Shown one piece after another: positions 6,644 to 24,000 of a stretch of 24,000 bases of DNA. The DNA lies in contig JBCBZJ010000013.1 of NCBI GenBank assembly GCA_039815375.1, positions 56,957 to 80,956 on the forward strand, in the 5' to 3' direction. A model generated the notes under the pieces. That model was not told the DNA's origin. It did not search any database and saw only the letters and a list, made by a program, of their open reading frames with translations. Origin of the DNA: Verrucomicrobiota bacterium. GTDB taxonomy: Bacteria; Verrucomicrobiota; Verrucomicrobiia; Opitutales; Coraliomargaritaceae. Positions within the stretch are counted from its first letter, which is position 1. Every line of letters begins with the position of its first letter. Position numbers and translations under genes: made by a program.

Positions 6644-7098
6644 GCAATTTCGAAGACTGCCTGCAGTTCGACTGTTGTGTCTTTCGGGAGGCCGGTTACT
6701 GCAACGGCAGCACGAGTGTGTCTTCCACGTTCACCGAGAACCTCGACGAGCGTATCAGATGCTCCGTTGATGACTGCAGGGCTGTCGGGGAATCCGGGCA
6801 CTGCATTGACGAAGCCGTTCAGCTGGGCAACTTGCTTGATCTGGTCGAGATCGCCGAGATGAGCCTTAGCGACGGCCAGAAGGTTTAGTGCGCAGATCCG
6901 GGCTGCAGCTTGGCCATAGGCAATGTCGTGTTCTTCTCCGACTTTTCCTGTGTGGGTCATTTCGCCAGCCACCAGGCAGATTGCGCCTGAAAGATAGAGA
7001 AGCTTTCCGGATTGATAGGCAGGCACATAGTTACCCGCAGGTGCGGGCGCTGGTGGTAGTTCGATGCCGAGTTCAGCGAGGTGCTCTTCAGTAGTCAT
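6640..7098 (-). CDS. RidA/YjgF/UK114-family protein
   Basis: 152 aa: LPPAPAPAGNYVPAYQSGKLLYLSGAI...GKVG...AARICALNLLA...RAAVAVTGLPKDTTVELQAVFEI. This is the typical RidA-family layout. Its stop codon overlaps the queF stop. Confidence 0.85.
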   Translation of the reverse strand: MTTEEHLAELGIELPPAPAPAGNYVPAYQSGKLLYLSGAICLVAGEMTHTGKVGEEHDIAYGQAAARICALNLLAVAKAHLGDLDQIKQVAQLNGFVNAVPGFPDSPAVINGASDTLVEVLGERGRHTRAAVAVTGLPKDTTVELQAVFEIA

Positions 7099-7143
7099 TA
7101 AAAGTTTGTTTAAAGGTGAGAGTGAAAGCTTGGAAAAGAAGAA

Positions 7144-8451
7144 TTATTTTGAATCAGGATAAGGTATTTCGCCTTCACTTCGGCCAATGACAACAGCACC
7201 GACCGTATCAGAAAAAACGTTCACGGAGGTGCGGCACATATCGAGAATACGGTCTGTTGCCCAGATCACGCCAATGGCTTCAACCGGAAGGCCAACAACT
7301 GGCAGAATCACCGCGATAGCCACTAGGCTTGCAGCCGGGATTCCGGCTACCCCAATACTGGTCGTTAGTGCGAGAAAGACGACCAGCAGTTGCTGGCCTA
7401 TATCCAAAGCGACGCCACCGGCTGATGCGTAGAGTTGTGAGATGAAGAGCACGACAACACACTCGTAGAGTGCCGTGCCATCCATATTGACGGTTGCGCC
7501 AAGCGGGAGTGTAAATGAACAGGTTTTCTTTGATATTTTGGCCTGATCCTTGACCGTATCCATAGTCAGGGGAAGTGTCGCGGAGGAACTTGCCGTGGAG
7601 AAGGCAGTGAGCAGAACGGGGCTCATCGCCTTGTAGTGAGTCAGCGGATTGAGACCACCAAATAATCTCAGAATCAAGCTTAGGTTGACGATGAAGTGCA
7701 GGGCCAGTGCGATCAATACTGTCAGAAAGAAGGCGAGTAGGGTGCCGACGAATTTGTCCAATGGAGCTTCGAGTAATTTGGGCGTGACCAGGCCGAAGAC
7801 GCCGATTGGCGCAAAGCGTATAATAAACTCGGTGAGCATGAGCATGACACTTTGCGTCCCATCCCAAAATTTCTGCTGTGCCTCTTTGAGGTCTGGGCTC
7901 AATTTGCCGATGAATAGCCCAAATAAAATCGAGAATGTGATGACGCCAAGAAGCTGCCCGTTATTGCTGGCGGCGTTGACGATGTTGGAAGGGAACATGC
8001 GAAGGAAAACCTCGACGATGTCTCCCGAATCTCGGCCCTCGACTTTGGCGGCCAGACCTTTTTCCACCGAAGTGATTTGCGCTTCACCGAGTAGGGCCTG
8101 AGCCGTTTCCGCGTCGACTTTTCCCGGGCCAATCACGTTGACTACAAGTAGTCCGATCATGACAGCAAGTGCTCCGCTAATTGTGTAGTAAAGTAAAGTT
8201 TTGCCTCCGATCCGCCCGACGCCCTTTTCTGCACCGAGATGCATTACGCCAGCGATAATCGAGGCGACGATCAAAGGCACAATGACCATTTTGAGGGCAT
8301 TCATAAAGAGATCACCGGAGAACTCACAGAAACCGAGTGTTGCCGAGCTGAATCCATCGCTCGAATTCGGAAGGATAAGCAGTCCAAAGAGGGCTGCGAA
8401 AGACAGAGCGAGGAAGATCTGCCAGTGGAGTTTCCAGCGAATCGGGTTCAT
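7144..8451 (-). CDS. dicarboxylate/amino acid:cation symporter (DAACS / GltP-SstT family)
   Basis: 435 aa polytopic membrane protein. Family-typical segments are FTLPLGATVNMDGTALYE and GIPAASLVAIAVIL...DRILDMCRTSVNVFSD. Confidence 0.9.
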   Translation of the reverse strand: MNPIRWKLHWQIFLALSFAALFGLLILPNSSDGFSSATLGFCEFSGDLFMNALKMVIVPLIVASIIAGVMHLGAEKGVGRIGGKTLLYYTISGALAVMIGLLVVNVIGPGKVDAETAQALLGEAQITSVEKGLAAKVEGRDSGDIVEVFLRMFPSNIVNAASNNGQLLGVITFSILFGLFIGKLSPDLKEAQQKFWDGTQSVMLMLTEFIIRFAPIGVFGLVTPKLLEAPLDKFVGTLLAFFLTVLIALALHFIVNLSLILRLFGGLNPLTHYKAMSPVLLTAFSTASSSATLPLTMDTVKDQAKISKKTCSFTLPLGATVNMDGTALYECVVVLFISQLYASAGGVALDIGQQLLVVFLALTTSIGVAGIPAASLVAIAVILPVVGLPVEAIGVIWATDRILDMCRTSVNVFSDTVGAVVIGRSEGEIPYPDSK

Positions 8452-13644: not shown

Positions 13645-14721
13645 ATGCCTAAGTGCAGCTTCGAAGGAATTAGAGTCGGTGGGGTCGTGACCTGTGTGCC
13701 CCAGCGTGAGCGTTGTATTGATGAAGAGGTCGAGCTTTTCGGCGGAAATGAGAAGCAAATTGCCCGTCTTAAGAAGACGATTGGTTTGGATCGCCGTCGT
13801 GTGGTTGATGATTCTACGACGGCTGCTGACCTTTGCGAAGCGGCAGCAAGAAGGCTACTGCCAGCATGTGATCTGGAATCTTCGGATATTGATGCGGTCA
13901 TTTGCGTGACACAGACCCCCGACTACCCTCAACCTTGCAATGCTGCTGTCTTGCATGGGAAACTGGGACTACCCAAGAATTGTGCCGCACTTGATGTGAA
14001 CCTTGGTTGCTCGGGCTATGTATATGGTTTGTGGTTGGCCTTCATGATGATCAGCTCTGGAGGGTGCAAGCGCGTCTTGTTGCTCGCTGGAGATACGATA
14101 AGTCGCCTGGTTAATAAACGGGACCGTTCTGTTGCGTCACTTTTTGGGGATGGCGGCAGCGCTACCATGATAGAGCAGTCTGATGGTGCAGGGACCTCAT
14201 GGATGAGCATGGATACAGATGGCACCGGGTTTGACCGTCTAATCGTTCCCGCTGGAGGGGCACGTCACCCGCACTCTGCCGAAACCCATCTCGAAGCTGA
14301 GGATGATGCCGGTAACCTTAGGTCCAAAGAGAATCTCTTTATGGATGGTGCCGAGGTTTTTAATTTTTCGATCAGCGAGGAACCCAAGGCAGTGTCCGAT
14401 CTTTTAGACTTTGCGGGAATCGAAATAGACGACGTTGATCACTTTGTTTTTCATCAGGCTAACCGTTATATCCTTTCAAATATTGCAAAGCGATTAGAGA
14501 TTGATCCAGCTAAAGTTCCGATGCGAACGGTGGAACGTTTTGGCAATCAAAGTTCGGCGTCGATACCTTCGGCACTATGTTCTGAGCTTGGCGACCTTTT
14601 GAGCTTGGATGCGGGGCGGCAGGTTTTGCTTTCTGGTTTTGGAGTTGGCTTGTCCTGGGCAACGGCATTGCTTCCGATCTCGAGTCTTAGAGTGTGCGAG
14701 GTTATCGATTACAAAGCTTGA
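13645..14721 (+). CDS. 3-oxoacyl-ACP synthase III (KASIII/FabH)-like condensing enzyme, non-canonical subfamily
   Basis: 358 aa. The Cys-His-Asn triad contexts are all present: [21 protein letters not shown] and [11 protein letters not shown] (canonical FabH has GNTSAAS here). It is not adjacent to other fab genes. Confidence 0.85.
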
Positions 14722-14769
14722 ACTTCTTCGGTTGCTTCTCGCTTATCGCTAATCCATTTTCTTTAGGAT

Positions 14770-15006
14770 ATGGAATTGGAACAGTTTATTCGTGATTTTG
14801 AGGCGGCAATTGAGGATCTGCCCGTGGGCAGCCTTACTGCAGAATCGCATTTCCGTAAATTAGAGCAATGGGACTCTCTTGCAGTGCTGACTGTTATTGC
14901 TATGGCCAATAGTGAGTACGGCTTTGCTCTTAAAGCGCGCGACTTGAAGCGCTTTGATACCGTGGAAGCGTTATTCGCTTTTATTGAATCATCACAGAAC
15001 CCATGA
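14770..15006 (+). CDS. acyl carrier protein (phosphopantetheine-binding)
   Basis: 78 aa acidic helical protein with the Ser attachment motif in LEQWDSLAVLTVIAM. Its stop overlaps the next gene's start (ATGA at 15003-15006). Confidence 0.75.
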   Translation: MELEQFIRDFEAAIEDLPVGSLTAESHFRKLEQWDSLAVLTVIAMANSEYGFALKARDLKRFDTVEALFAFIESSQNP

Positions 15007-15635
15007 AGCGCTTGATCATTGTTGGTGCCGGAGGTTTTGGTCGCGAAGTCTACGCATGGGCCAAGGATCATAAGGACTGCGGCACACTATGGGAGGTGGT
15101 TGGTTTTCTGGATGATGACCCATTTGCGCTCAATGCATTTGAATACCCGGTTGGTATTCTGGGTTCCATTGATACTTATGTAATCGGACCAGACGACATT
15201 TTCTTGTGTGCAATCGGTTCGCCAAAAGTAAAAAAGGTTGTTGTCGGTCGTATGCTGGCCAGAGGAGCAGATTTTATGACTTTGGTTCATCCTACAGTGG
15301 TCGTCGGTGAAAATGTTATGATTGCTGTTGGGACGATCGTTTGTCCGGGCGCGGTCATCACCTGTGATATTACAATCGGTCGATTTGTTGCGGTGAACTG
15401 CCTAAGCAGTATCGGACACGATGTGAAGGTGGGTGACTGGGCAACCATTAGTGGTCATTGTGACTTGACCGGAAAGTCCTCGATAGGCGAGGGCAGTTTT
15501 TTAGGGAGCGGTTCACGTATCCTGCCCGGAAAATCGGTAGGATCAGAAGCACTTGTGGGTGCGGGGTCAGTCGTTCTTAATTCGGTTTCGGATGGAAAAA
15601 AGGTATTCGGCAACCCGGCGCAGCCATTCTCCTAG
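15003..15635 (+). CDS. NeuD/PglD-family sugar N/O-acyltransferase (left-handed beta-helix, hexapeptide repeats)
   Basis: 210 aa. The N-terminal Rossmann-like segment MKRLIIVGAGGFGREVYAWA...VVGFLDDDP is typical of the NeuD/PglD family. The C-terminal hexapeptide repeats are IGENV, IGRFV, VGDWA, IGEGS, LGSGS and VGAGS. Confidence 0.85.
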   Translation: MKRLIIVGAGGFGREVYAWAKDHKDCGTLWEVVGFLDDDPFALNAFEYPVGILGSIDTYVIGPDDIFLCAIGSPKVKKVVVGRMLARGADFMTLVHPTVVVGENVMIAVGTIVCPGAVITCDITIGRFVAVNCLSSIGHDVKVGDWATISGHCDLTGKSSIGEGSFLGSGSRILPGKSVGSEALVGAGSVVLNSVSDGKKVFGNPAQPFS

Positions 15636-16330
15636 TTTTCAGGGAGGCTGCCGGGCTTTTCGAGGCCGATTTCTGCCAGTCCATCGAGAAGAGTTTGAAA
15701 ACCCTCCATACCTTTAAGTTCTTCGATCATTTTGTTGCTTGATAGGCGAATGAAAAACTGTTCCTGCCTCAAATTTAGACCGTGCTTTTGGATATCAATC
15801 AAGGCGCCGAATATATTGTGTCCGCCCTTTTGGTCATATCCAAATGCGACTCCGCCGACCAAGTGCCAAAAGTAAACATTTTCAACATTACCGTTTTTCT
15901 CGAATATCCCAAATTCAGCAGGTTGAAAATCTGCCGATGCCGAGTTGAACGGTATACCGTATTCACGGTCTAAACGAGTCCATCCGTTTTGAACCCAGCA
16001 AGTATCTGGTGTGTGTGCACCGGCCCAGCGATAGGAGGCTTTTCCTGGTGTCCAATAGGCAATGTATAGACTTACGATAGTGTCGCTTTTCTGAAAAACG
16101 CGGAATAAGGAGTCATCAAATTTGAGAAAATCGCTGACTCGAGCCGCTGCTTCCGGTGAGTTCGACATTTTCATATCACGCACTTTCCACCCTTTTAATT
16201 CTGAAGGAAAAAGATCGGATAGTTGATCTTGCAGTGTCGCTGTTGGCGGCAAGGTGAAAACAAAATAAGCCCTGAGTCCCAGGGATGCGGCCAGAATTGC
16301 GAACGCGACGACAAGAAGAATCTTTTTCAT
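15632..16330 (-). CDS. EpsI-family (exosortase-associated, DUF3485-like) protein
   Basis: N-terminal TM MKKILLVVAFAILAASLGL, then FPSELKGWKVRDM...VSLYIAYWTPGK...GAHTPDTCWVQNGW...VYFWHLVGG...FFIRLSS. This matches my memory of the EpsI pattern (lgGW.g.d, LyiAYy, H.P..C.pg.GW, v.YW). I prefer the ATG at 16330 over the GTG at 16357. Confidence 0.7.
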   Translation of the reverse strand: MKKILLVVAFAILAASLGLRAYFVFTLPPTATLQDQLSDLFPSELKGWKVRDMKMSNSPEAAARVSDFLKFDDSLFRVFQKSDTIVSLYIAYWTPGKASYRWAGAHTPDTCWVQNGWTRLDREYGIPFNSASADFQPAEFGIFEKNGNVENVYFWHLVGGVAFGYDQKGGHNIFGALIDIQKHGLNLRQEQFFIRLSSNKMIEELKGMEGFQTLLDGLAEIGLEKPGSLPEN

Positions 16331-16461
16331 TTTGCACCCACGATGTGACCACACCACTTTTACGTCAATACTCTGAGGGACTTAAGATTGCCTGTGGTCA
16401 GAAAATATGCGTTTCCTCTCTATACGCTTCCAATATCGCAAATATTTTCGATCAATAGATT
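16331..16461. promoter_or_regulatory. divergent intergenic region (EpsI-like gene / Wzy_C-TPR operon promoters presumed)
   Basis: 131-bp AT-rich gap between divergent starts. It contains the near-palindrome CGCAAATATTTTCG at 16437-16450. Confidence 0.3.
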
Positions 16462-18414
16462 ATGCCCTCCTTAATTGATAGGTCTGGTAATGTCCAATTT
16501 TTTGGTCAGCTATCTTGGGCTAATTTCCTCGATTGGCTGATTACCTTATGCCTTGCCGCTATTCTAGTGATTACTTCTCTCCAGCTGGGCGGTGTTCGGC
16601 CGGAGACTCAGCATTCTGTTCTGCCACTGTATGCTATCCTTCTCTTGCTCCATGGTCTTTGGATCGCCATTGATAAGGAAAGGCCTCGCCGGATTAGTCC
16701 AGGTCCGGTCCTTTTTTTACCCTTCCTTATTTTCGCGTCGCTCAGCTTTTACTTTTTAAGCCCGGTTCCCTGGCGCGCATCTTATGAATTAACCTATTTC
16801 TTTGGCATATTCATATTTATTTGGGTCGCAGTAAATAACGTGCGGAGTCGAGCGCATTTATTGATTTTGATACTTATGGCGCTGATTCCGGCAGGGAGTG
16901 CATCTCTTATCGGTTTTTACCAGTTTTTCCAGGACTCCACTCAGGTAGCGAGTGCATCGGTCGGTTATGCATTGGAATTGAATCAACAGTACTTTGGAAG
17001 GGCTACAGGTATTTTCGCTGATCCAAATAGCTTCGCCGCCTACCTTCTTGCTCTTTTGCCCTGTTTTATAATAGCGGCCCTTGTGCCCCGGCTCCCGATC
17101 ATCTTAAGAGTGCTTTGTTTTTATGTGGGTCTAGTTCTGCTGGCAGGTATTACCTTTACGCAAACATATTGGGCTGCCGCTTCGGTCGTCATTTTGATGG
17201 CTATCTTGCCCTGGTTTTGTTTCAAAAAAAAGTCCTTACGGGTGCTTTCTTCCATGCTGGTAGTTGGTTCGGCTCTGGTGGTCTTCCTGTTGATGTTTCT
17301 GGTAAGCCCATCATTTCAACGTGGTTTCGCGCGTGCGCTGAGCACGGATGGCGAAGCTGTAAGAATTGTTTTATGGCAAGAGGGCCTTCGTAGTCTATCG
17401 CGAAGTCCTTTCCTTGGCTCAGGTGGAGGCACCTATGCTTTTCAACTAGATCATAGTGACTCTCTCTCAATTCCTTATGGTCCTGTAACGCCGCAAAATG
17501 ATTACATGCTTATTTTGGGGCAATATGGGTTACTTGGTGGAGCTCTTTTGTTCGTGCCTGGCTTTTACCTGATTTTAAGAGCTTACCTACGCTGGAAATC
17601 TGAGGCATTTGACAGAAAGCTAAAGGGGCAGCGCGAGAGGGTGATGTCACCACAGAAGTTTTTTCTTTCAATTGCGACTAGCGGAATTCTGGCTCTTCTC
17701 ATTGCGGCCTTTTTTACTTCTGTGCTTTATATTCCGGGGTTGCTGCTCTTTGGAGCCCTGCTCTTTTCTGTCCTAGTTAAGCTCAGCTTCAGTCGCACTC
17801 TGAACCTGCCGAATTTTCGTTTTGCAGGCCTGTCTTATTTGTCTATCGCCGCATTGTTTGGTGTAGTTTTCTGGATAAATTCCAGCTCTAGTATTGAATC
17901 CCAAGCATACGAGTTACGGGCTCGGCAGAGCCTTAATAAACTTGTGGAAAAGCGGGTTCCCATCTCAGGCAATATTGAGCTAATCGAAAATACCATTCAT
18001 AGGTTCAAAGATGCTGTAGTTATCGACCCGAACAATGCTGACGCTTGGATTGGTCTGAGCTCAGCGATTTGCCAGCTTTACTACAGTAGGCCTGAAGAAT
18101 TTGAAGCAATCGCGTCTCGTGCCGTCTCGGCTGCGTCCCGTGCCTACGAGATATGTCCGGAATATTGGCTATCATCAGCGCAGTTGGGTATTGCCCTTGC
18201 ACTGGGCGGAGAGCTCGAAGACGCTCGCTCTGCGCTGGAACGCTCTGTAGCAATGGCGCCAAACAGCAGTAATGCACATTATTATCTGGCTTCTTACCTT
18301 AGCGTTTTTCCGGAAGAGAGGGAGGGCGCGATTGAGCACGTCGGCCTGTCGCTTGAGATTAATCCGCGTAATGCGGCGGCTTTAAAACTGCAGCGTAAAC
18401 TTTTGATTCTTTAG
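16462..18414 (+). CDS. O-antigen ligase/polymerase-like (Wzy_C) polytopic membrane protein fused to C-terminal TPR repeats
   Basis: 650 aa with about 10-12 hydrophobic helices. Wzy_C-like loop and helix segments are GRATGIFADPNSFAAYLLALLP and PQNDYMLILGQYGLLGG. The C-terminal soluble ~180 aa carries TPR-like repeats (NADAWIGLSSAICQLY..., EYWLSSAQLGIALALGGELEDARSALERSVAMAPNSSNAHYYLASYL). Confidence 0.8.
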   Translation: MPSLIDRSGNVQFFGQLSWANFLDWLITLCLAAILVITSLQLGGVRPETQHSVLPLYAILLLLHGLWIAIDKERPRRISPGPVLFLPFLIFASLSFYFLSPVPWRASYELTYFFGIFIFIWVAVNNVRSRAHLLILILMALIPAGSASLIGFYQFFQDSTQVASASVGYALELNQQYFGRATGIFADPNSFAAYLLALLPCFIIAALVPRLPIILRVLCFYVGLVLLAGITFTQTYWAAASVVILMAILPWFCFKKKSLRVLSSMLVVGSALVVFLLMFLVSPSFQRGFARALSTDGEAVRIVLWQEGLRSLSRSPFLGSGGGTYAFQLDHSDSLSIPYGPVTPQNDYMLILGQYGLLGGALLFVPGFYLILRAYLRWKSEAFDRKLKGQRERVMSPQKFFLSIATSGILALLIAAFFTSVLYIPGLLLFGALLFSVLVKLSFSRTLNLPNFRFAGLSYLSIAALFGVVFWINSSSSIESQAYELRARQSLNKLVEKRVPISGNIELIENTIHRFKDAVVIDPNNADAWIGLSSAICQLYYSRPEEFEAIASRAVSAASRAYEICPEYWLSSAQLGIALALGGELEDARSALERSVAMAPNSSNAHYYLASYLSVFPEEREGAIEHVGLSLEINPRNAAALKLQRKLLIL

Positions 18415-18417
18415 GAA

Positions 18418-19323
18418 ATGAACCGGGATTGGATCTTATTGCTTTTTCTTCTGATTTTAAGGCCGTTTGATGTAGGTGCAGAAACCACATTTCGAGGCTC
18501 GGTAGCTGTCTTGGAAGCCAGCCCGAAAGTTCATTTGTCAGTTCTTGGCTACGAGGGCAGTTCGTTTACACCAGTCGCCTTGCCACAATACCTCCCTGGT
18601 TTGTTTTCGGCTACTGGAACTCAGGAAGATTACCTCTTTCTGCGCACTTCGAACCGAATGAATCTCTTTTTTGAGGGAGCTGGTTTTTTCGCCGTGGAAC
18701 GCTTTGAATATGTAGCAGAATCCGATCCGTCGGTGAGCGAAGAACTAAAGGTGCTCCAGAGCCGGATGATATTGAATTTGCGGAAAGGTCTACTCTTGGT
18801 GGATTGTGTTGAACTTTGCGAGGAATCTCAACTTTTTGTTGAGGCACCATTCGGTCAGGTCGCCGGTTCCGGGGCTAAATGGTTTATAGAGATTGCATTA
18901 GATCCGCGCAGCGGGATTTACGGTTTTACCATTGCCTGCCAAGAGGGTCTGGTTCGTTTGACTGACCTGAGAGGCGAGGTCTATTTGATCTATCCGGGGC
19001 AGCGTCTGGCCGGTGCGGGCAGTTCGAGTGCGCCGGCAATCGAGGTCGGCGAGCCTACCGATCATTCGCGTCAACTCTTCAAGAATTTTGAGGAACTGTT
19101 AATGAAGCACGACATGACTAAGCTCGACCATGCAGCATTGCGTCAACAGATGCTGGTGCTGGGGGAATCTACCGCTGCAGAATCGGCTCTTACGGATGAT
19201 TCAGGTGCTCCGAAATCTAACAAGCGCCCTGTTGTTATTGAGTTTTCGCCTCGTGCACCGGAATTGACTCCTTTTCGCGGTGAGGTGTGCCCGCCTTCCG
19301 ATGCCCAAGTGGATTTATTTTAG
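18418..19323 (+). CDS. secreted protein, FecR-like beta-sandwich domain (tentative)
   Basis: 301 aa with signal peptide MNRDWILLLFLLILRPFDVGA. The alternating-strand pattern YLFLRTSNRMNLFFEGAGFFAVE...ILNLRKGLLLVD...LFVEAPFGQVAGSGAKWFIEI...CQEGLVRLTDLRGEVYLIYPGQ fits the FecR-domain layout by eye. It starts 3 bp after the upstream stop and overlaps the cyclase start. Confidence 0.5.
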   Translation: MNRDWILLLFLLILRPFDVGAETTFRGSVAVLEASPKVHLSVLGYEGSSFTPVALPQYLPGLFSATGTQEDYLFLRTSNRMNLFFEGAGFFAVERFEYVAESDPSVSEELKVLQSRMILNLRKGLLLVDCVELCEESQLFVEAPFGQVAGSGAKWFIEIALDPRSGIYGFTIACQEGLVRLTDLRGEVYLIYPGQRLAGAGSSSAPAIEVGEPTDHSRQLFKNFEELLMKHDMTKLDHAALRQQMLVLGESTAAESALTDDSGAPKSNKRPVVIEFSPRAPELTPFRGEVCPPSDAQVDLF

Positions 19324-21706
19324 AAAATTGAAAGGATTGAAGCAATCTGGCCTTTACGCTTTGCTGGTCCTGGCTTCATCGGCAGTTTGGATTGTATTGG
19401 GCAGCTCTGGGCTCTTGGACGGTATTGATCAGGAGGTCATGAGATGGCGCTATCTTGCGAGGGGTGAGATTGAGACGAAAGACAACATCGTCTATGTCGA
19501 TCTGGATGCTGAAACCGTTTCTTATATGGGGCATCGGCCGTGGGATCGCAGAGAGTTTGGCCGCGTTCTCGCAGCTCTTTTGGGTCCGGGTGGAGCCAGA
19601 ACCGTGGCGGTTGATATCATCTTTTCAAAGTATGGTGCGAGCACGATGCTTGATCTGGATCGTGCACGAAAAGGGGACTTCTTTTTGGGGCAAATAGTAG
19701 AAAAGTATAAGGATAAAGTGGTCTTGGCTGCAGCCTATACAGGAGTGATTAATACTCTGGCTGCTGAGAGTGCCGACAGGCTGCCGCTGATTCGGGATGG
19801 CAACTACGATCCCGAAACGAACACTTTTCCTGAGGCACCAACGTTCCCGATTATTAATCTCGATGTCGGGCGTTTGGGAATAGCGAATGTTGATGAGGCA
19901 CTGAGTCGGGGGCCGATTCCCCTCTTTGTTCCCGCATTTATCGAGTTTGATAGCCCTCGTTACAGTTTTTTGCTGATGGATGGTTTAACCCGCCATTTCA
20001 GCTTAGTCCTGAATGAGGAGCTCAGGCCGGCCGTTTTAGGGGATCAAGTTACCATCCAAAGTAGTGATGGTTGGTTTAGCAAGCAGCTGCCTCTAAATAC
20101 CAAGACGACGCTTTTTAGCTTAGGTTTGGAGGCTTTTCTTGTTGCGCATGGTCTCGGACGAACAGCGGTTGAGTTCGAAGGCAGTACGCTGTCGATTCGC
20201 ATGAGCGAAGAAGAAACCATACGTATACCATTGGTTCAGTCACAGTCGATTGAAGTGAATTGGTTCGAAGGTTGGGATACGAGTCAGGGCAATGAAAGAG
20301 TAAGTATGCGCGAGGTTCTGGAACGAGCTGATGCGCTGGCAAAGGCTGCAAATGCGAACGATACTTCTACCCTCAAAACTTTGCGCGAGTGGTTTAGCCA
20401 ATTCAATGATAAGGTCATCTTTCTTGGGCCGGTTGACCCTCAGTTGAAAGATATTGCTCCGACACCATTCAATCGAGTGCCTGTTCCTAAGGTGTTGCTG
20501 CATGCCAATGTTTTTCGCACGATTGAGTCCGGCGAGTTTATTCTGAGAGTATCATCTTTGGTCTCCGCTCTGAGTGTTCTTCTGCTTACTGTTGGGGTTG
20601 CATGTTTGGCCCTTGGTAATCGATGGTTACGGATTTGTTCAGTAGGCGTCTTTATCGGCTACATCGGATTCGTATTTGTGGTTTTTTCCTCTTCGAATCT
20701 AGTCCTTCCTCTCGTCTCGCCTGTAGGTTCTGCCCTCACCGCAACCATTTTTGTTATTCTGATCCGTATTGGTTCCGAAGAGTGGCAGCGTCGTCGTATT
20801 AAGAATCTATTCGGTGCTTACGTCTCTCCAAGCTTGGTTAATGATATGGTCGAATCCCATCGAGACCCTGAGCTTGGCGGAACAGAAGCTGAGGTGACGG
20901 CCCTTTTTTCCGATGTCGAGGGGTTTTCTTCGCTTTCGGAAGAGTTGAAGCCGAACGAACTGGTCGCTCTTATGAACGAATATCTCGGTGAAATGACTGA
21001 GACTTTTCAGGCGGAACAAGGCACCCTGGACAAGTATATCGGCGATGCCATTGTGACGATGTTTGGCATGCCCTATCCGGTTGACGATCATGCTGCGCGT
21101 GCCTGTCGATCAGCACTCGCTATGCAAGAACGCCATGCTGCACTTCGAGAACAATGGAGGGAAGATGGCAAGTGGCCGGAAAAGGTGCTGCAGATGCGCA
21201 CTCGAATCGGTATCAACACCGGGGTTGCTGTTATCGGGAACATGGGAAGTGAAATGCGTTTCAACTACACAATGATGGGGGATTCGGTAAACCTCGCTGC
21301 TCGATGCGAAAGTGGGGCAAAGAGCTACGGAGTGTATACCATGGTCACGGCGTCGACGCTCGAGGCTGCTTTGCGGGAGAACCTGGAATTGCACTATCGC
21401 AAGTTGGATCGTGTTGTCGTTAAAGGTCGGAGTCGGCCGGTTGAAATCTACGAGCTATGGGATGCCTCCTATGATTTAACGAAGGCTCGATCTTGTCGTG
21501 CGAAGTATGAGCAAGCGCTTCAAGCGTATTTCGACGGCGATTGGGAAAATGCGCTTTTGGGCTTCGAAGCGTCTTCAGCTGATGAGCCCGGTCAGGAGTT
21601 TGCGCCAATCACGCCATCTGAACTTCTCGCGGAACGTTGCCGAGAGTTCATTAAGAACGGCTCTCCGGAGAATTGGGATGGCGTCTACCGGATGAAAACG
21701 AAATAA
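19301..21706 (+). CDS. CHASE2 sensor domain-containing class III adenylate cyclase
   Basis: N-terminal TM (GLYALLVLASSAVWIVLG), a ~380 aa extracytoplasmic CHASE2-type region (IVYVDLDAETV...VAVDIIFS), then 3 TM helices. The cyclase core is ALFSDVEGFSSLSE...LDKYIGDAIVTMFG...RIGINTGVAVIGNMGS...NYTMMGDSVNLAARCES. I prefer the ATG at 19301 (MPKWIYFRKL) over the GTG at 19280. Confidence 0.9.
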   Translation: MPKWIYFRKLKGLKQSGLYALLVLASSAVWIVLGSSGLLDGIDQEVMRWRYLARGEIETKDNIVYVDLDAETVSYMGHRPWDRREFGRVLAALLGPGGARTVAVDIIFSKYGASTMLDLDRARKGDFFLGQIVEKYKDKVVLAAAYTGVINTLAAESADRLPLIRDGNYDPETNTFPEAPTFPIINLDVGRLGIANVDEALSRGPIPLFVPAFIEFDSPRYSFLLMDGLTRHFSLVLNEELRPAVLGDQVTIQSSDGWFSKQLPLNTKTTLFSLGLEAFLVAHGLGRTAVEFEGSTLSIRMSEEETIRIPLVQSQSIEVNWFEGWDTSQGNERVSMREVLERADALAKAANANDTSTLKTLREWFSQFNDKVIFLGPVDPQLKDIAPTPFNRVPVPKVLLHANVFRTIESGEFILRVSSLVSALSVLLLTVGVACLALGNRWLRICSVGVFIGYIGFVFVVFSSSNLVLPLVSPVGSALTATIFVILIRIGSEEWQRRRIKNLFGAYVSPSLVNDMVESHRDPELGGTEAEVTALFSDVEGFSSLSEELKPNELVALMNEYLGEMTETFQAEQGTLDKYIGDAIVTMFGMPYPVDDHAARACRSALAMQERHAALREQWREDGKWPEKVLQMRTRIGINTGVAVIGNMGSEMRFNYTMMGDSVNLAARCESGAKSYGVYTMVTASTLEAALRENLELHYRKLDRVVVKGRSRPVEIYELWDASYDLTKARSCRAKYEQALQAYFDGDWENALLGFEASSADEPGQEFAPITPSELLAERCREFIKNGSPENWDGVYRMKTK

Positions 21707-21721
21707 ACTGTTATGGTGGCT

Positions 21722-22042
21722 TTAGTAGGAAGGCACCTCGGGGTCGACTTCATGAGACCAGGCGTGAATGCCCCCCGCCATGTTGATCACATTTTTGAAG
21801 CCCCTTGACTCGAGATACTGGAGGACGTTCATGCTGCGCATACCATGGTGGCAAAACACCACGAGCGGCGCAGTCGTTGGGAGTGAATCGACTCTGCCGG
21901 GGATTTCGCCCATCGGGATATGAAGTGATCCTTTGATGGAGCAGAAAGCCACCTCCTCCGGCTCTCTTACATCGAGGAGAACCGTTTCGGGAGTCTCTTC
22001 ACGCATTTTAGCTGCATCGGTCGCACTGATTTCCTTGTTCAT
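21722..22042 (-). CDS. single-domain rhodanese-like sulfurtransferase
   Basis: 106 aa with the active-site loop [10 protein letters not shown] (CxxxxR[ST]) and the typical LLDVREPEE and GGIHAW segments. Confidence 0.85.
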
Positions 22043-22072
22043 TACCTATCTTTCATGATGATTGAGGAGAAT

Positions 22073-22831
22073 ATGTCAAAGAACCCGGCTATAATCGTGC
22101 CAACACGGCTAAGCTCGACGCGCTTTCCCCGTAAGCTTCTCTATGCTGTGAAAGGGAAACCCGTGATCCTTTGGACAGCTGAGCGCATTGCCCAGGTTGC
22201 GCCGGAGTTCCCTCTCTATTTCGCTGTGGATGATGTCGAATTAGAGGACTGCCTTGGTGATGCAGGCTATCAAACTGTAATGACACATCCGGATCATCCA
22301 AGTGGCACCGACCGTCTTGCCGAGGCCAACGAGAGAGTAGGGGCCAGTGCTGTGATTAATGTCCAGGGGGATGAGCCACTTGTTACCGGTGAACAAATTC
22401 GCGCTCTTGCAGAAGGCCTTGGTAATGGTTGTGACATTGCTACACTTGCGGTGCGTTTTGAAAAACCGGAAGATTTTGCCAATCCGAACCAAGTTAAGGT
22501 CGTGTGTGCCCGCACAGGAGAAGCGCTTTTCTTCTCACGTTCAGCGATTCCTTTCTGCCGTGAACTCGCTGGTCAGGTTGACGCGGCTTGGCTTCGAGCC
22601 AATCCAGTTTACCGGCACCTCGGTCTTTATGCCTATTCTGCTGATTTCCTGAAGGCTTTCTCTTCGCTTGAGCCTGGCTTCCTTGAGCAACATGAAAAGC
22701 TCGAACAGCTCCGAGCTATGGAGCACGGCTACAGAATTCACGTTGGAACAACGGATCAACCCACAATTGGTATCGATACGCCTGAAGATATCCTTGGCTT
22801 TGAAGCTGCCATGAATTCGTCGAAGGGTTGA
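22073..22831 (+). CDS. kdsB: 3-deoxy-manno-octulosonate cytidylyltransferase (CMP-Kdo synthetase)
   Basis: [23 protein letters not shown]..., [10 protein letters not shown] and the GIDTPEDL-like GIDTPEDI are present. GAGGAG at 22064-22069 precedes the ATG at 22073. The ORF-track start at 22055 (MMIEEN...) is an alternative. Confidence 0.9.
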
Positions 22832-22863
22832 CAAAGCAGCAGACTAGCAGCCGTATTTAGTAG

Positions 22864-24000
22864 ATGCAGACTGCGACGCCAGCCCTTGAAGTAGACCCGC
22901 TCAGCCTCCCGGACGAGCGGGGCCACTTTGGCCCATACGGAGGTATGTATGTGCCTGAAACCTTGATGACACCACTTTTTGAGCTGACGGAAGCCTACAA
23001 GGAAGCTCGTAGGGATCCTGAATTCCAGAAAGAGCTGGACCATCACCTGCGGGAATTTGCTGGTCGTCCGACCAATCTTTATTTTGCGGAGCGCCTGACC
23101 GAGCACTGCGGTGGGGCACAAATTTACCTGAAGCGGGAGGATCTCCTCCATACAGGTGCGCACAAAATTAACAACGCACTTGGGCAGGCACTTGTTGCTA
23201 AACGCATGGGCAAAAAGCGTATCATTGCCGAAACAGGAGCAGGGCAGCATGGAATCGCGACTGCAGCCATATGTGCGAAGATGGGCTTTGAATGCGTGAT
23301 TTATATGGGCGAAGAGGACATGCGTCGTCAGTCGCTGAATGTCTACCGCATGCGCCTTTGTGGCGCCGAGGTTCGGGGTGTTTCCGCAGGTCAGAAGACT
23401 CTCAAGGAGGCCGTTAATGAAGCGATGCGTGATTGGGTGACGAATGTTCGCGACACGCATTACATTATTGGTTCTGCGCTTGGTTCACATCCTTTCCCTA
23501 TGATGGTGCGGGATTTTCATCGTGTTATCGGTGAAGAAACTCGACGGCAAATTCTCGAAATGGCTGGTCGTTTGCCGGATGAGGTTACCGCATGCGTTGG
23601 AGGTGGCTCGAATGCCATCGGTATCTTTTTCGCCTTCCTTGGTGATCCGGAAGTCAAACTCACTGGAGTAGAAGCAGGTGGGCACGGGATCGCACCGGGC
23701 CAACATGCAGCTCGTTTTGAAGGTGGTCGACTGGGTGTTCTTCAGGGAGCGAAAACCTGGATTTTGCAGGATGTTGACGGTCAGATCGATCTCACTCATT
23801 CGGTCTCCGCTGGCCTCGACTATGCCGCGGTCGGGCCGGAACATGCTTATTATAGAGATGCGGGTCGCATCGGCTTTGGATTCGCGACCGACGATGAAGC
23901 GCTCGATGCTTTTAAGGGGCTTTGCCGTATCGAAGGGATCGTGCCTGCGCTCGAATCCTCTCATGGCATTGCCTACACGATGCAGCGTGCGCGGGAAATG
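22864..24000 (+). CDS. trpB: tryptophan synthase beta chain, C-terminus cut by window edge
   Basis: Absent from the ORF track because there is no stop in the window. Manual translation from ATG 22864 gives [130 protein letters not shown]... This includes the PLP-lysine motif HTGAHKINN. The frame stays open for 379 codons to position 24000. Confidence 0.95.

Follow-up and report, generated by a model that had tools for sequence, protein, structure and literature searches.

Three consecutive genes on the plus strand of a 24,000-nucleotide (nt) stretch of a Verrucomicrobiota genome (contig JBCBZJ010000013.1, positions 56,957 to 80,956; this whole stretch is called the window here, and positions count from its first letter) are predicted to encode a WaaL/Wzy_C-fold membrane protein with a C-terminal tetratricopeptide repeat (TPR) domain (ORF1, for open reading frame 1), a secreted and highly divergent FecR-domain protein (ORF2) and a CHASE2 receptor adenylate cyclase (ORF3). 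The order Wzy_C-TPR, FecR, CHASE2 cyclase is conserved in well over seventy related loci, an arrangement far beyond chance. We propose that the three genes form a conserved, probably co-transcribed, envelope-facing signalling module with a periplasmic relay to cyclic AMP (cAMP), and give this proposal as a whole a probability of about 0.55. For a conserved functional module by itself our confidence is much higher; for the direction and nature of the signal it is lower.

Gene order in marine, soil and freshwater loci

The marine set comprised 14 genomes (Opitutales, Puniceicoccaceae, Thalassobacterium, Lentimonas and related metagenome-assembled genomes, MAGs). ORF1 and ORF2 are neighbours in 14/14 of these loci, with a junction of −4 to +4 nt there and in the window. 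The cyclase gene follows in 11 of the 14; three loci (L008, L009 and L010; such numbers are our handles for loci) pass from ORF2 directly to a rhodanese gene. Throughout the marine clade, synteny extends over the entire accC-to-kdsB block and takes in housekeeping genes, so that the marine gene order alone proves little: it would equally fit three unrelated envelope genes that lie side by side by inherited synteny, with no functional link. In one MAG of the set (L012, FRAM18_bin340), ORF2, the cyclase, EpsI and KdsB each seem to be split into two frames; errors of assembly or sequencing are a likelier cause than pseudogenes.

Homolog searches listed the marine clade only. The wider spread was recovered by a profile search of a representative library, by look-ups of its distant matches and by a metagenome scan. 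Three distant Pfam-positive FecR relatives are encoded directly upstream of CHASE2 genes (L023, L025 and L026). In L025 and L026 the ORF further upstream is cut by the contig end, and its TPRs are homologous to the ORF1 C-terminus; L023 carries FecR and a CHASE2 cyclase without a Wzy_C gene. When metagenomes were scanned with eight FecR proteins of this kind, 79 loci were recovered, from soil, rhizosphere, peat and lake samples; 75 of them are non-duplicate. They were searched with local hidden Markov models (HMMs) built from the ORF1 and ORF3 families. A full-length Wzy_C-TPR gene is adjacent on the same strand in 58 of the 61 loci with room upstream, and a full-length CHASE2 cyclase gene is adjacent in 55 of the 58 with room downstream. 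Pfam recognized all positional counterparts that were scanned (Wzy_C 43/43; CHASE2 and Guanylate_cyc 37/37), and an independent look-up of two loci (L106, L107) gave the same trio by precomputed Pfam labels.

None of the genes that flank the trio in the window lies within 10 kb of it in the soil loci, whose flanks consist of GlnA-like, SOD, DUF3300 or PhzF genes. Between the marine and soil sets, ORF1 is 22–31% and the cyclase 31–42% identical. Because the trio is the only element common to the marine and soil/freshwater clades, this is strong evidence for a functional module; and because the order recurs on contigs with different flanking genes, local synteny does not suffice to explain it and the module is real. 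The original prediction, which had described the three genes as one tightly coupled operon, is borne out to this extent: strand, order and minimal spacing recur in two clades with unrelated flanks. Inherited synteny of unlinked genes, as the marine block might have suggested, is close to refuted by the metagenome loci and we hold it to be very improbable, the more so as the tightness of the junctions is conserved and these three types of domain are also encoded in clusters in Campylobacterota (PMC9239204).

Gene coordinates were checked against the list of ORFs and the junction sequences. ORF1 (16462–18414, plus strand, 650 aa) ends in TAG, and ORF2 (18418–19323, plus strand, 301 aa) starts with ATG after a gap of 3 nt (TAG-GAA-ATG), exactly as predicted. 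The cyclase, according to the same prediction, starts at an ATG at 19301, 23 nt inside ORF2, and the packing of the genes was taken as a sign of co-transcription and probably of coupled translation. An in-frame ATG does lie 23 nt before the ORF2 stop, and the frame stays open from GTG 19280 through 21706, which leaves GTG 19280, ATG 19301 (801 aa) and TTG 19337 (789 aa, the public gene call for the contig) as alternative starts. Homologous cyclases, however, are 790–792 aa long, and their N-terminus (MK[IT]SKQLF...) aligns with TTG 19328 of the window (MKGLKQSGLY...). ATG 19301 derives from Ser-Asp codons of the conserved C-terminal peptide of ORF2; L001 and L002 share it, yet the cyclase frame there is closed upstream of its start. 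The cyclase start is likely TTG 19328 and not ATG 19301, so that ORF3 would span 19328–21706 (plus strand, 792 aa) and the ORF2/ORF3 junction would be a gap of 4 nt (13 nt with the public call). Since the N-termini of the relatives align with TTG 19328, the 23-nt overlap is probably incidental, and since it is probably not the true start, translational coupling of ORF2 and ORF3 has become less well founded. In marine relatives the cyclase begins 7–41 nt past the ORF2 stop, in L018 and L019 its start overlaps that stop by 4 nt, and in the soil clade the junction measures about 50–110 nt. The packing of the genes is still tight after correction of the start.

Remote marine relatives, in which ORF2 is about 17–26% identical to the window protein, keep the ORF1–ORF2 pair in the same block, and the two genes overlap by 1–4 nt in L015, L016 and L018. 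The third gene varies. L018 has a full CHASE2 cyclase; L015 encodes a 456-aa cyclase without CHASE2 that aligns to residues 466–796 (6858–8228 of that locus); L016 has, after a gap of 190 nt, a 312-aa soluble catalytic domain (6881–7819); L017 has none. The cyclase can thus be arranged in a decay series, from the full form of about 790 aa through 456 and 312 aa to absence (L008–L010, L017), with ORF1–ORF2 intact throughout. Because the pair outlives truncation and loss of the cyclase, it cannot exist solely to feed it. What stays constant is the Wzy_C-TPR/FecR pair, the core of the module, and some lineages do without the cyclase. The link of the operon that is packed most tightly and conserved best is accordingly that between Wzy_C-TPR and FecR, not the one between FecR and cyclase; the pair persists in at least six related loci whose cyclase has lost CHASE2 or is absent.

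These observations bear on an alternative explanation, in which the pair would work on envelope glycans as a machine of its own and the cyclase would be no more than a co-expressed passenger or regulator, without a direct sensing link through CHASE2. ORF1 would then be a working ligase, polymerase or oligosaccharyltransferase, and ORF2 its periplasmic accessory (a substrate holder, chaperone or regulator). The ORF1/ORF2 junctions in the window, the 14 marine loci and L015, L016 and L018 are what one would expect of such a machine, as are the persistence of the pair in six related loci with a lost or truncated cyclase, the retention of the catalytic His of ORF1 in the cyclase-less L008–L010 and a glycan-flavoured marine neighbourhood (a FabH-like/acyl carrier protein (ACP)/PglD-like cassette, EpsI and KdsB). 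A passenger would hardly be expected, though, to follow the pair in 55/58 informative soil loci and in most marine ones while the flanks differ. Moreover, FecR and CHASE2 are paired without Wzy_C in L023 and in other phyla (PMC9239204, PMC5192318), so that the FecR protein has an ancestral tie to CHASE2 and not just to ORF1. We regard this alternative as possible, though unlikely.

Predicted architecture of the three proteins

Pfam and NCBIfam scans of the window covered positions 13645–22831. ORF1 matches Pfam Wzy_C (PF04932) with an E-value of 1.6e-13 and 51.2 bits (cutoff 31.7) at aa 223–364 (17128–17553, plus strand); this core holds the predicted periplasmic loop with an invariant Arg301, and its HN motif reads Q345-N-D. 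Residues ~499–650 (17956–18411, plus strand) form a TPR domain with a conserved ...KLLIL C-terminus, to which the Pfam families TPR_17, TPR_19, TPR_14 and TPR_11 match and for which the sequence matches in PDB are TPR proteins. The AlphaFold2 (AF2) model (predicted local distance difference test, pLDDT, 85; predicted template modelling score, pTM, 0.86) has 13 long hydrophobic helices followed by the TPR helices, with short helices in the loop 283–330 and helical repeats at 499–649 modelled at a pLDDT above 90. Its top PDB match by Foldseek is the O-antigen ligase WaaL (7tpg_B; E 8e-6, template modelling (TM) score 0.64 over 451 columns), and a profile of the N-terminal 480 aa has WaaL 7tpg as its sole PDB match (E 1.3e-12). 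By Pfam score, fold and conserved Arg, ORF1 is assigned to the Wzy_C/WaaL superfamily, in agreement with the O-antigen-ligase-like/TPR protein of the original prediction, and transfer of an undecaprenyl-diphosphate-linked glycan to an acceptor may be its activity.

The topology of ORF1 was derived from helix counting and charge distribution. Lys/Arg-rich loops at 71–77, 255–260, 375–396 and 440–451 are compatible with a cytoplasmic N-terminus. The loop 283–349 would be periplasmic as in WaaL, and the extra 13th helix would put the TPR domain into the periplasm as well, a placement that follows from the 13 predicted helices together with the distribution of the Lys/Arg-rich loops.

Arg301 aligns with the Arg in 'VRLKIW' of Cupriavidus metallidurans WaaL (CmWaaL) and is invariant in 43/43 sequences; position 345 aligns with the His of 'AHND' in WaaL. 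In published mutagenesis of WaaL and PglL, the catalytic His of this HN motif proved essential. The column holds His in 40/43 sequences of the broad set and in 24/30 of the marine set, and in the window it holds Gln345 (codon 17494–17496; TPQNDY as against the consensus TPHNDY). Tyr is found in L001, the nearest relative, Ala in L015 and Ser in L016. In the lineage of the window, ORF1 may have lost its enzymatic activity or have been altered as an enzyme. A correlation between loss of this His and loss of CHASE2, which holds in L015 and L016 only, was rejected: the window and L001 have lost the His and kept CHASE2, and L008–L010 have lost the cyclase and kept the His.

ORF2 gave no family in Pfam and NCBIfam even at E ≤ 10. 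Its 40 homologs (36–55% identical) carry no precomputed Pfam domain, one being named 'FecR protein domain-containing' in UniRef, and among 34 close homologs Pfam yielded a single, marginal FecR match (E 0.0012). The four best PDB fold matches of its AF2 model are all periplasmic domains of FecR-type anti-sigma regulators (PupR 6ovk_R, BDI_1681 4m0h_A and 4m0h_B, and 4m0n), with E-values of 3e-5 to 5e-4 and target-normalised TM scores of about 0.5; the next match has E 0.05. A profile search against 1.8 billion representatives produced 287 relatives, and of 54 distant matches 41 carry PF04773 (FecR), the best at E 5.5e-17. When the ORF2 family (A1) was compared with the Pfam-positive FecR proteins (A6) by hhalign, the probability was 98.8% (E 5.2e-17, 190 columns), and positional counterparts of ORF2 are PF04773-positive in 50/50 scanned cases. 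ORF2 is assigned as a divergent secreted FecR-domain protein on structure and profile methods because direct HMM annotation gave no match. The FecR-like character that the original prediction had given to the middle protein is therefore upheld by structure and profile comparison and missed by single-sequence HMMs. With it, a family of 'hypothetical proteins' can be re-annotated as divergent FecR-domain proteins.

The predicted layout of ORF2 consists of a signal peptide (aa 1–21), a beta-sandwich (aa 22–211), helices, a disordered linker and a conserved C-terminal peptide; there is a signal peptide only, with no transmembrane segment and no cytoplasmic anti-sigma domain. In the family alignment, the signal peptide gives way to a conserved region that is all beta, then to a variable stretch of helices and disorder and finally to the almost invariant C-terminal peptide. 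The AF2 model has a pLDDT of 81.8, falling below 50 at residues 252–278, the Pro/Ser/Thr-rich linker. The C-terminal peptide of the window protein (aa 268–301; 19219–19320, plus strand) reads RPvVIEfsP..lTPFRGEVcPPSdaQvDLF-COOH, and its form in the alignment is RPxVIEYAP...TPFRGEVKPPSxxQADLF-COOH. Residues I274, E275, P285, F286, R287, P293, S294, Q297 and F301 are invariant or nearly so in 34 marine-clade homologs. Soil-clade FecR counterparts end in a Pro-rich linker and TPGAG-COOH, which aligns with TPFRG. The terminal Phe recalls the beta-signals of outer-membrane proteins or the C-terminal peptides bound by TPRs. A link between the C-terminal ADLF motif and the presence of the cyclase was considered and rejected, since the cyclase-less L008–L010 keep the motif.

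This tail would have a special role if ORF1 were a TPR-guided protein O-oligosaccharyltransferase of the PglL/TfpO type whose substrate is the C-terminal tail of ORF2, the glycosylation state of FecR then acting on CHASE2. PglL and TfpO are members of the Wzy_C family, and the gene of TfpO adjoins that of its pilin substrate, which offers an analogy for the ORF1–ORF2 pair. The disordered Pro/Ser/Thr-rich linker, the invariant Thr/Ser-Pro context of the terminal peptide (TPFRG..PPS in the marine, TPGAG in the soil clade) and the predicted placement of both the TPR domain and the active-site loop of ORF1 in the periplasm are all consistent with such an arrangement. Neither a sequon nor evidence of glycosylation speaks for it, on the other hand; ORF1 of the window lacks the catalytic His (Gln345), and remote marine relatives (P0120, P0122 and similar) are without the C-terminal motif and still have the gene pair. 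We consider glycosylation of the tail improbable.

ORF3 contains a CHASE2 periplasmic sensor domain (PF05226; 19388–20593, plus strand; aa 30–431 if numbered from ATG 19301) with E 6.7e-27 and 95.1 bits (cutoff 26.3), and a class IIIb adenylate cyclase catalytic domain (Guanylate_cyc, PF00211; 20888–21445, plus strand) with E 3e-24 and 86.1 bits (cutoff 21.9). The best match of the catalytic domain among solved structures is Pseudomonas aeruginosa CyaB (3r5g, E 2.9e-34). In the alignment with CyaB, both metal-binding Asp residues (FSDVEGF, IGDA), the substrate-binding Lys (DKYIGD) and Thr (NYTMMG) and the transition-state Asn and Arg (VNLAARCES) are kept, and these catalytic columns are invariant in 37 soil-clade counterparts. 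ORF3 is, judged from these residues, a class IIIb adenylate cyclase with a complete catalytic set; the prediction of a CHASE2 adenylate cyclase was correct in this respect. Hydropathy peaks at 12–30, 411–429, 436–454 and 461–479 (numbered from TTG 19328) predict one transmembrane helix, a 380-aa periplasmic loop with CHASE2, three transmembrane helices and a cytoplasmic catalytic domain.

A proposed periplasmic relay to cAMP

According to these models, each of the three proteins would have a domain exposed in the periplasm. The original prediction had suggested that the cyclase may monitor the state of an envelope polymer, or that cAMP output may be tied to surface glycan assembly. With periplasmic domains predicted for all three proteins, either reading is plausible.

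In the mechanism that we favour, FecR-fold ORF2 would be exported by the Sec pathway and, like FecR-type domains that link a partner in the periplasm to signalling across the membrane, would act there as an adaptor. It would bridge WaaL-like ORF1, touched at its TPR domain and periplasmic face, and CHASE2. How much cAMP is made would then depend on the state of glycan-handling ORF1 or of the substrate of ORF1, lipid-linked or protein, CHASE2 being wired through three helices to the catalytically complete class IIIb cyclase. The Wzy_C-TPR/FecR pair would be the obligate core with an envelope function of its own, and the cyclase would be a signalling output that some lineages can dispense with. 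What we infer in this relay is the topology (from predicted helices and charge), the co-transcription, the physical contacts, the direction of information and the nature of the signal.

A more specific form of the relay can be envisaged, in which a WaaL-fold protein has been recruited as the input of a CHASE2 receptor, so that its occupancy by undecaprenyl-diphosphate-linked glycan, or glycosylation of a TPR-held FecR tail, is relayed to cAMP. Lineages with His345 changed to Gln, such as that of the window, would then have turned the enzyme into a pure sensor. We consider this form rather unlikely. If true, it would be the first defined input logic for CHASE2 and a direct feedback from envelope glycans to a second messenger.

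Several findings weigh against the relay. Its co-transcription is probable from gene spacing only, and the ORF2/ORF3 junction is looser than the ORF1/ORF2 junction in both the marine relatives and the soil clade. Scans for promoters and terminators gave no informative signal for the operon: promoter-like sites by consensus were fewer than in shuffled sequences, and terminator-like sites fell inside coding sequence. Gln345 at the catalytic-His column of WaaL leaves it vague what 'state' ORF1 of the window could report. ORF1–ORF2 persists where CHASE2 has been lost or the cyclase is absent, the FecR plus CHASE2-cyclase pair occurs without any Wzy_C gene in L023, and FecR counterparts stand alone in L061 and L073. 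The metagenome loci were picked by similarity to one FecR subfamily and are not fully independent samples; they are also partly syntenic among themselves, a GlnA-like gene lying upstream in 24 of them. Finally, the FecR and TPR genes of the Sinorhizobium meliloti cAMP pathway are not required for signal perception (PMC5498481).

The relay is of interest because few extracytoplasmic sensor domains are as common as CHASE2 among bacterial cyclases, kinases and diguanylate cyclases, and the literature consulted defines no small-molecule ligand and no general activation mechanism for it. In the best-studied case, that of S. meliloti, a plant protein is sensed via an outer-membrane helper. The conserved operon ties this sensor domain of undefined ligand to cell-envelope glycan machinery, and the search for its input is narrowed to a concrete candidate, lipid-linked or protein-linked envelope glycans. 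Natural variants are at hand, namely lineages without CHASE2, without the whole cyclase or without the WaaL-like catalytic His, and there are cultured relatives that bear the module (Coraliomargarita, Lentimonas, Thalassobacterium).

Flanking genes and related systems

Between ORF1 and a divergent gene for an exosortase-associated EpsI/DUF3485 protein (15632–16357, minus strand) lies a conserved block (16400–16440, without assigned strand; AAAATATGnGTTTnCC ... nnTATnGC). In an alignment of the 140 nt upstream of ORF1, AAAATATGnGTTTnCC is followed after about 15 nt by a TGTATTGCC-like element in 12 marine-clade loci, and the remaining intergenic DNA is not alignable among the marine-clade genomes. 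The block is a candidate promoter/operator, either of the operon or of the divergent EpsI-like gene. A simple sigma-70 consensus scan found no site within it, and Rfam identified no RNA family in the window.

Further upstream are a FabH-like gene (13645–14721), a 78-aa ACP-like ORF (14770–15006, plus strand; ..QWDSLAV..) that is absent from the ORF list, and a gene for a PglD/NeuD-like acyltransferase (15003–15635), which overlaps the ACP-like ORF by ATGA. This cassette, to which relatives L015 and L018 add a short-chain dehydrogenase and an AMP-ligase, looks suited to N-acylating an amino sugar. The stand-alone EpsI/DUF3485 gene is kept at the same place across the marine clade, including the remote L015, L016 and L018. 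The window shows no exosortase, and the soil-clade loci lack the EpsI/DUF3485 gene. ORF3 is followed by a convergent rhodanese gene and then kdsB, past which two long minus-strand ORFs (22756–23460 and 23485–23964) are candidate genes, the first overlapping the end of the kdsB ORF. A fourth conserved partner (a phosphodiesterase, a CRP-like regulator or an exosortase) was sought in the flanks of both clades, and none was found there. In L023, a protein with a cyclic nucleotide monophosphate (cNMP)-binding domain is encoded two genes downstream of the cyclase (6769–7260, minus strand) and is a possible cAMP receptor; there is no gene for a cNMP-binding-domain protein near the trio of the window.

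ORF1 shares its fold and conserved Arg with WaaL of C. metallidurans (PDB 7TPG) and with the Wzy_C family at large (WaaL, Wzy, PglL, TfpO). The loop that WaaL has in the periplasm between helices 9 and 10 recurs as well, and most relatives retain the HN-motif His. It differs from WaaL by the 13th helix and the 150-aa TPR domain, by the Gln at the catalytic-His column, and by a gene embedded in a signalling operon and not in a lipopolysaccharide core/O-antigen cluster. ORF2 resembles the FecR/PupR-type anti-sigma regulators (6OVK; BDI_1681, 4M0H/4M0N) in its periplasmic beta-sandwich and in the general principle by which a domain in the periplasm connects a partner protein with signalling across the membrane. 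Unlike these, it has no cytoplasmic anti-sigma domain or membrane anchor and is missed by the Pfam model, and among the ORFs listed for the window (Pfam and NCBIfam on 13645–22831) there is no extracytoplasmic function (ECF) sigma factor and no TonB-dependent receptor.

FecR partners beside CHASE2 proteins, named in the original prediction as common neighbours, are documented (PMC5192318, PMC9239204) and appear independently in L023. In Burkholderia and Pseudomonas, a LysM-FecR gene (COG4254, PA4035-like) adjoins that of a CHASE2 histidine kinase in the 'BiofilmReg' operon (PMC5192318). As in our window, a secreted FecR protein is encoded immediately upstream of a CHASE2 receptor and tightly packed with it. 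That FecR protein, however, carries LysM, the output consists of a histidine kinase and a response regulator, and there is no Wzy_C/TPR partner, whereas ORF2 of the window has no LysM match in Pfam and the output domain is a class III cyclase and not a histidine kinase.

In S. meliloti, the CHASE2 cyclases CyaD1, CyaD2 and CyaK perceive a plant protein by way of NsrA, a protein of the outer membrane (PMC13001267), the FecR-domain protein SMc02177 and the TPR protein SMb20495 act in the CHASE2-cyclase/Clr cAMP pathway, and cAMP-Clr drives succinoglycan synthesis (PMC5498481). The common features are CHASE2 class III cyclases with extracytoplasmic FecR and TPR proteins, and cAMP that feeds the control of a surface polysaccharide. 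The S. meliloti genes, in contrast, are dispersed and are targets of the cAMP regulator, NsrA is an outer-membrane barrel, and there is no WaaL-like protein.

A third system likewise unites the three domain types. In Campylobacterota, genes for a FecR-domain protein, a TPR protein and a cAMP phosphodiesterase are reported to lie in one cluster with those of CHASE2 adenylate cyclases (mBio 2022, PMC9239204); the authors of that paper deduced a common pathway from the clustering alone, with no ligand or mechanism known. Here as there, a CHASE2 class III cyclase, an extracytoplasmic FecR-domain protein and TPRs are encoded together. By comparison with the description in the paper, the window differs in that its TPRs form the C-terminal part of a WaaL/Wzy_C-fold protein, that the trio is without a cAMP phosphodiesterase (none was found among the marine or soil-clade neighbours), and that its FecR protein carries a signal peptide without a predicted barrel, the Campylobacterota counterpart being described as an outer-membrane protein. 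Our literature search found no paper combining CHASE2 with O-antigen, and the papers that include both Wzy_C and TPR do not concern this operon. The CHASE2/FecR/TPR triad is thus already known as a genomic association; its TPR partner fused to a WaaL-fold membrane protein, with the strict gene order and the breadth seen here, appears to be new.

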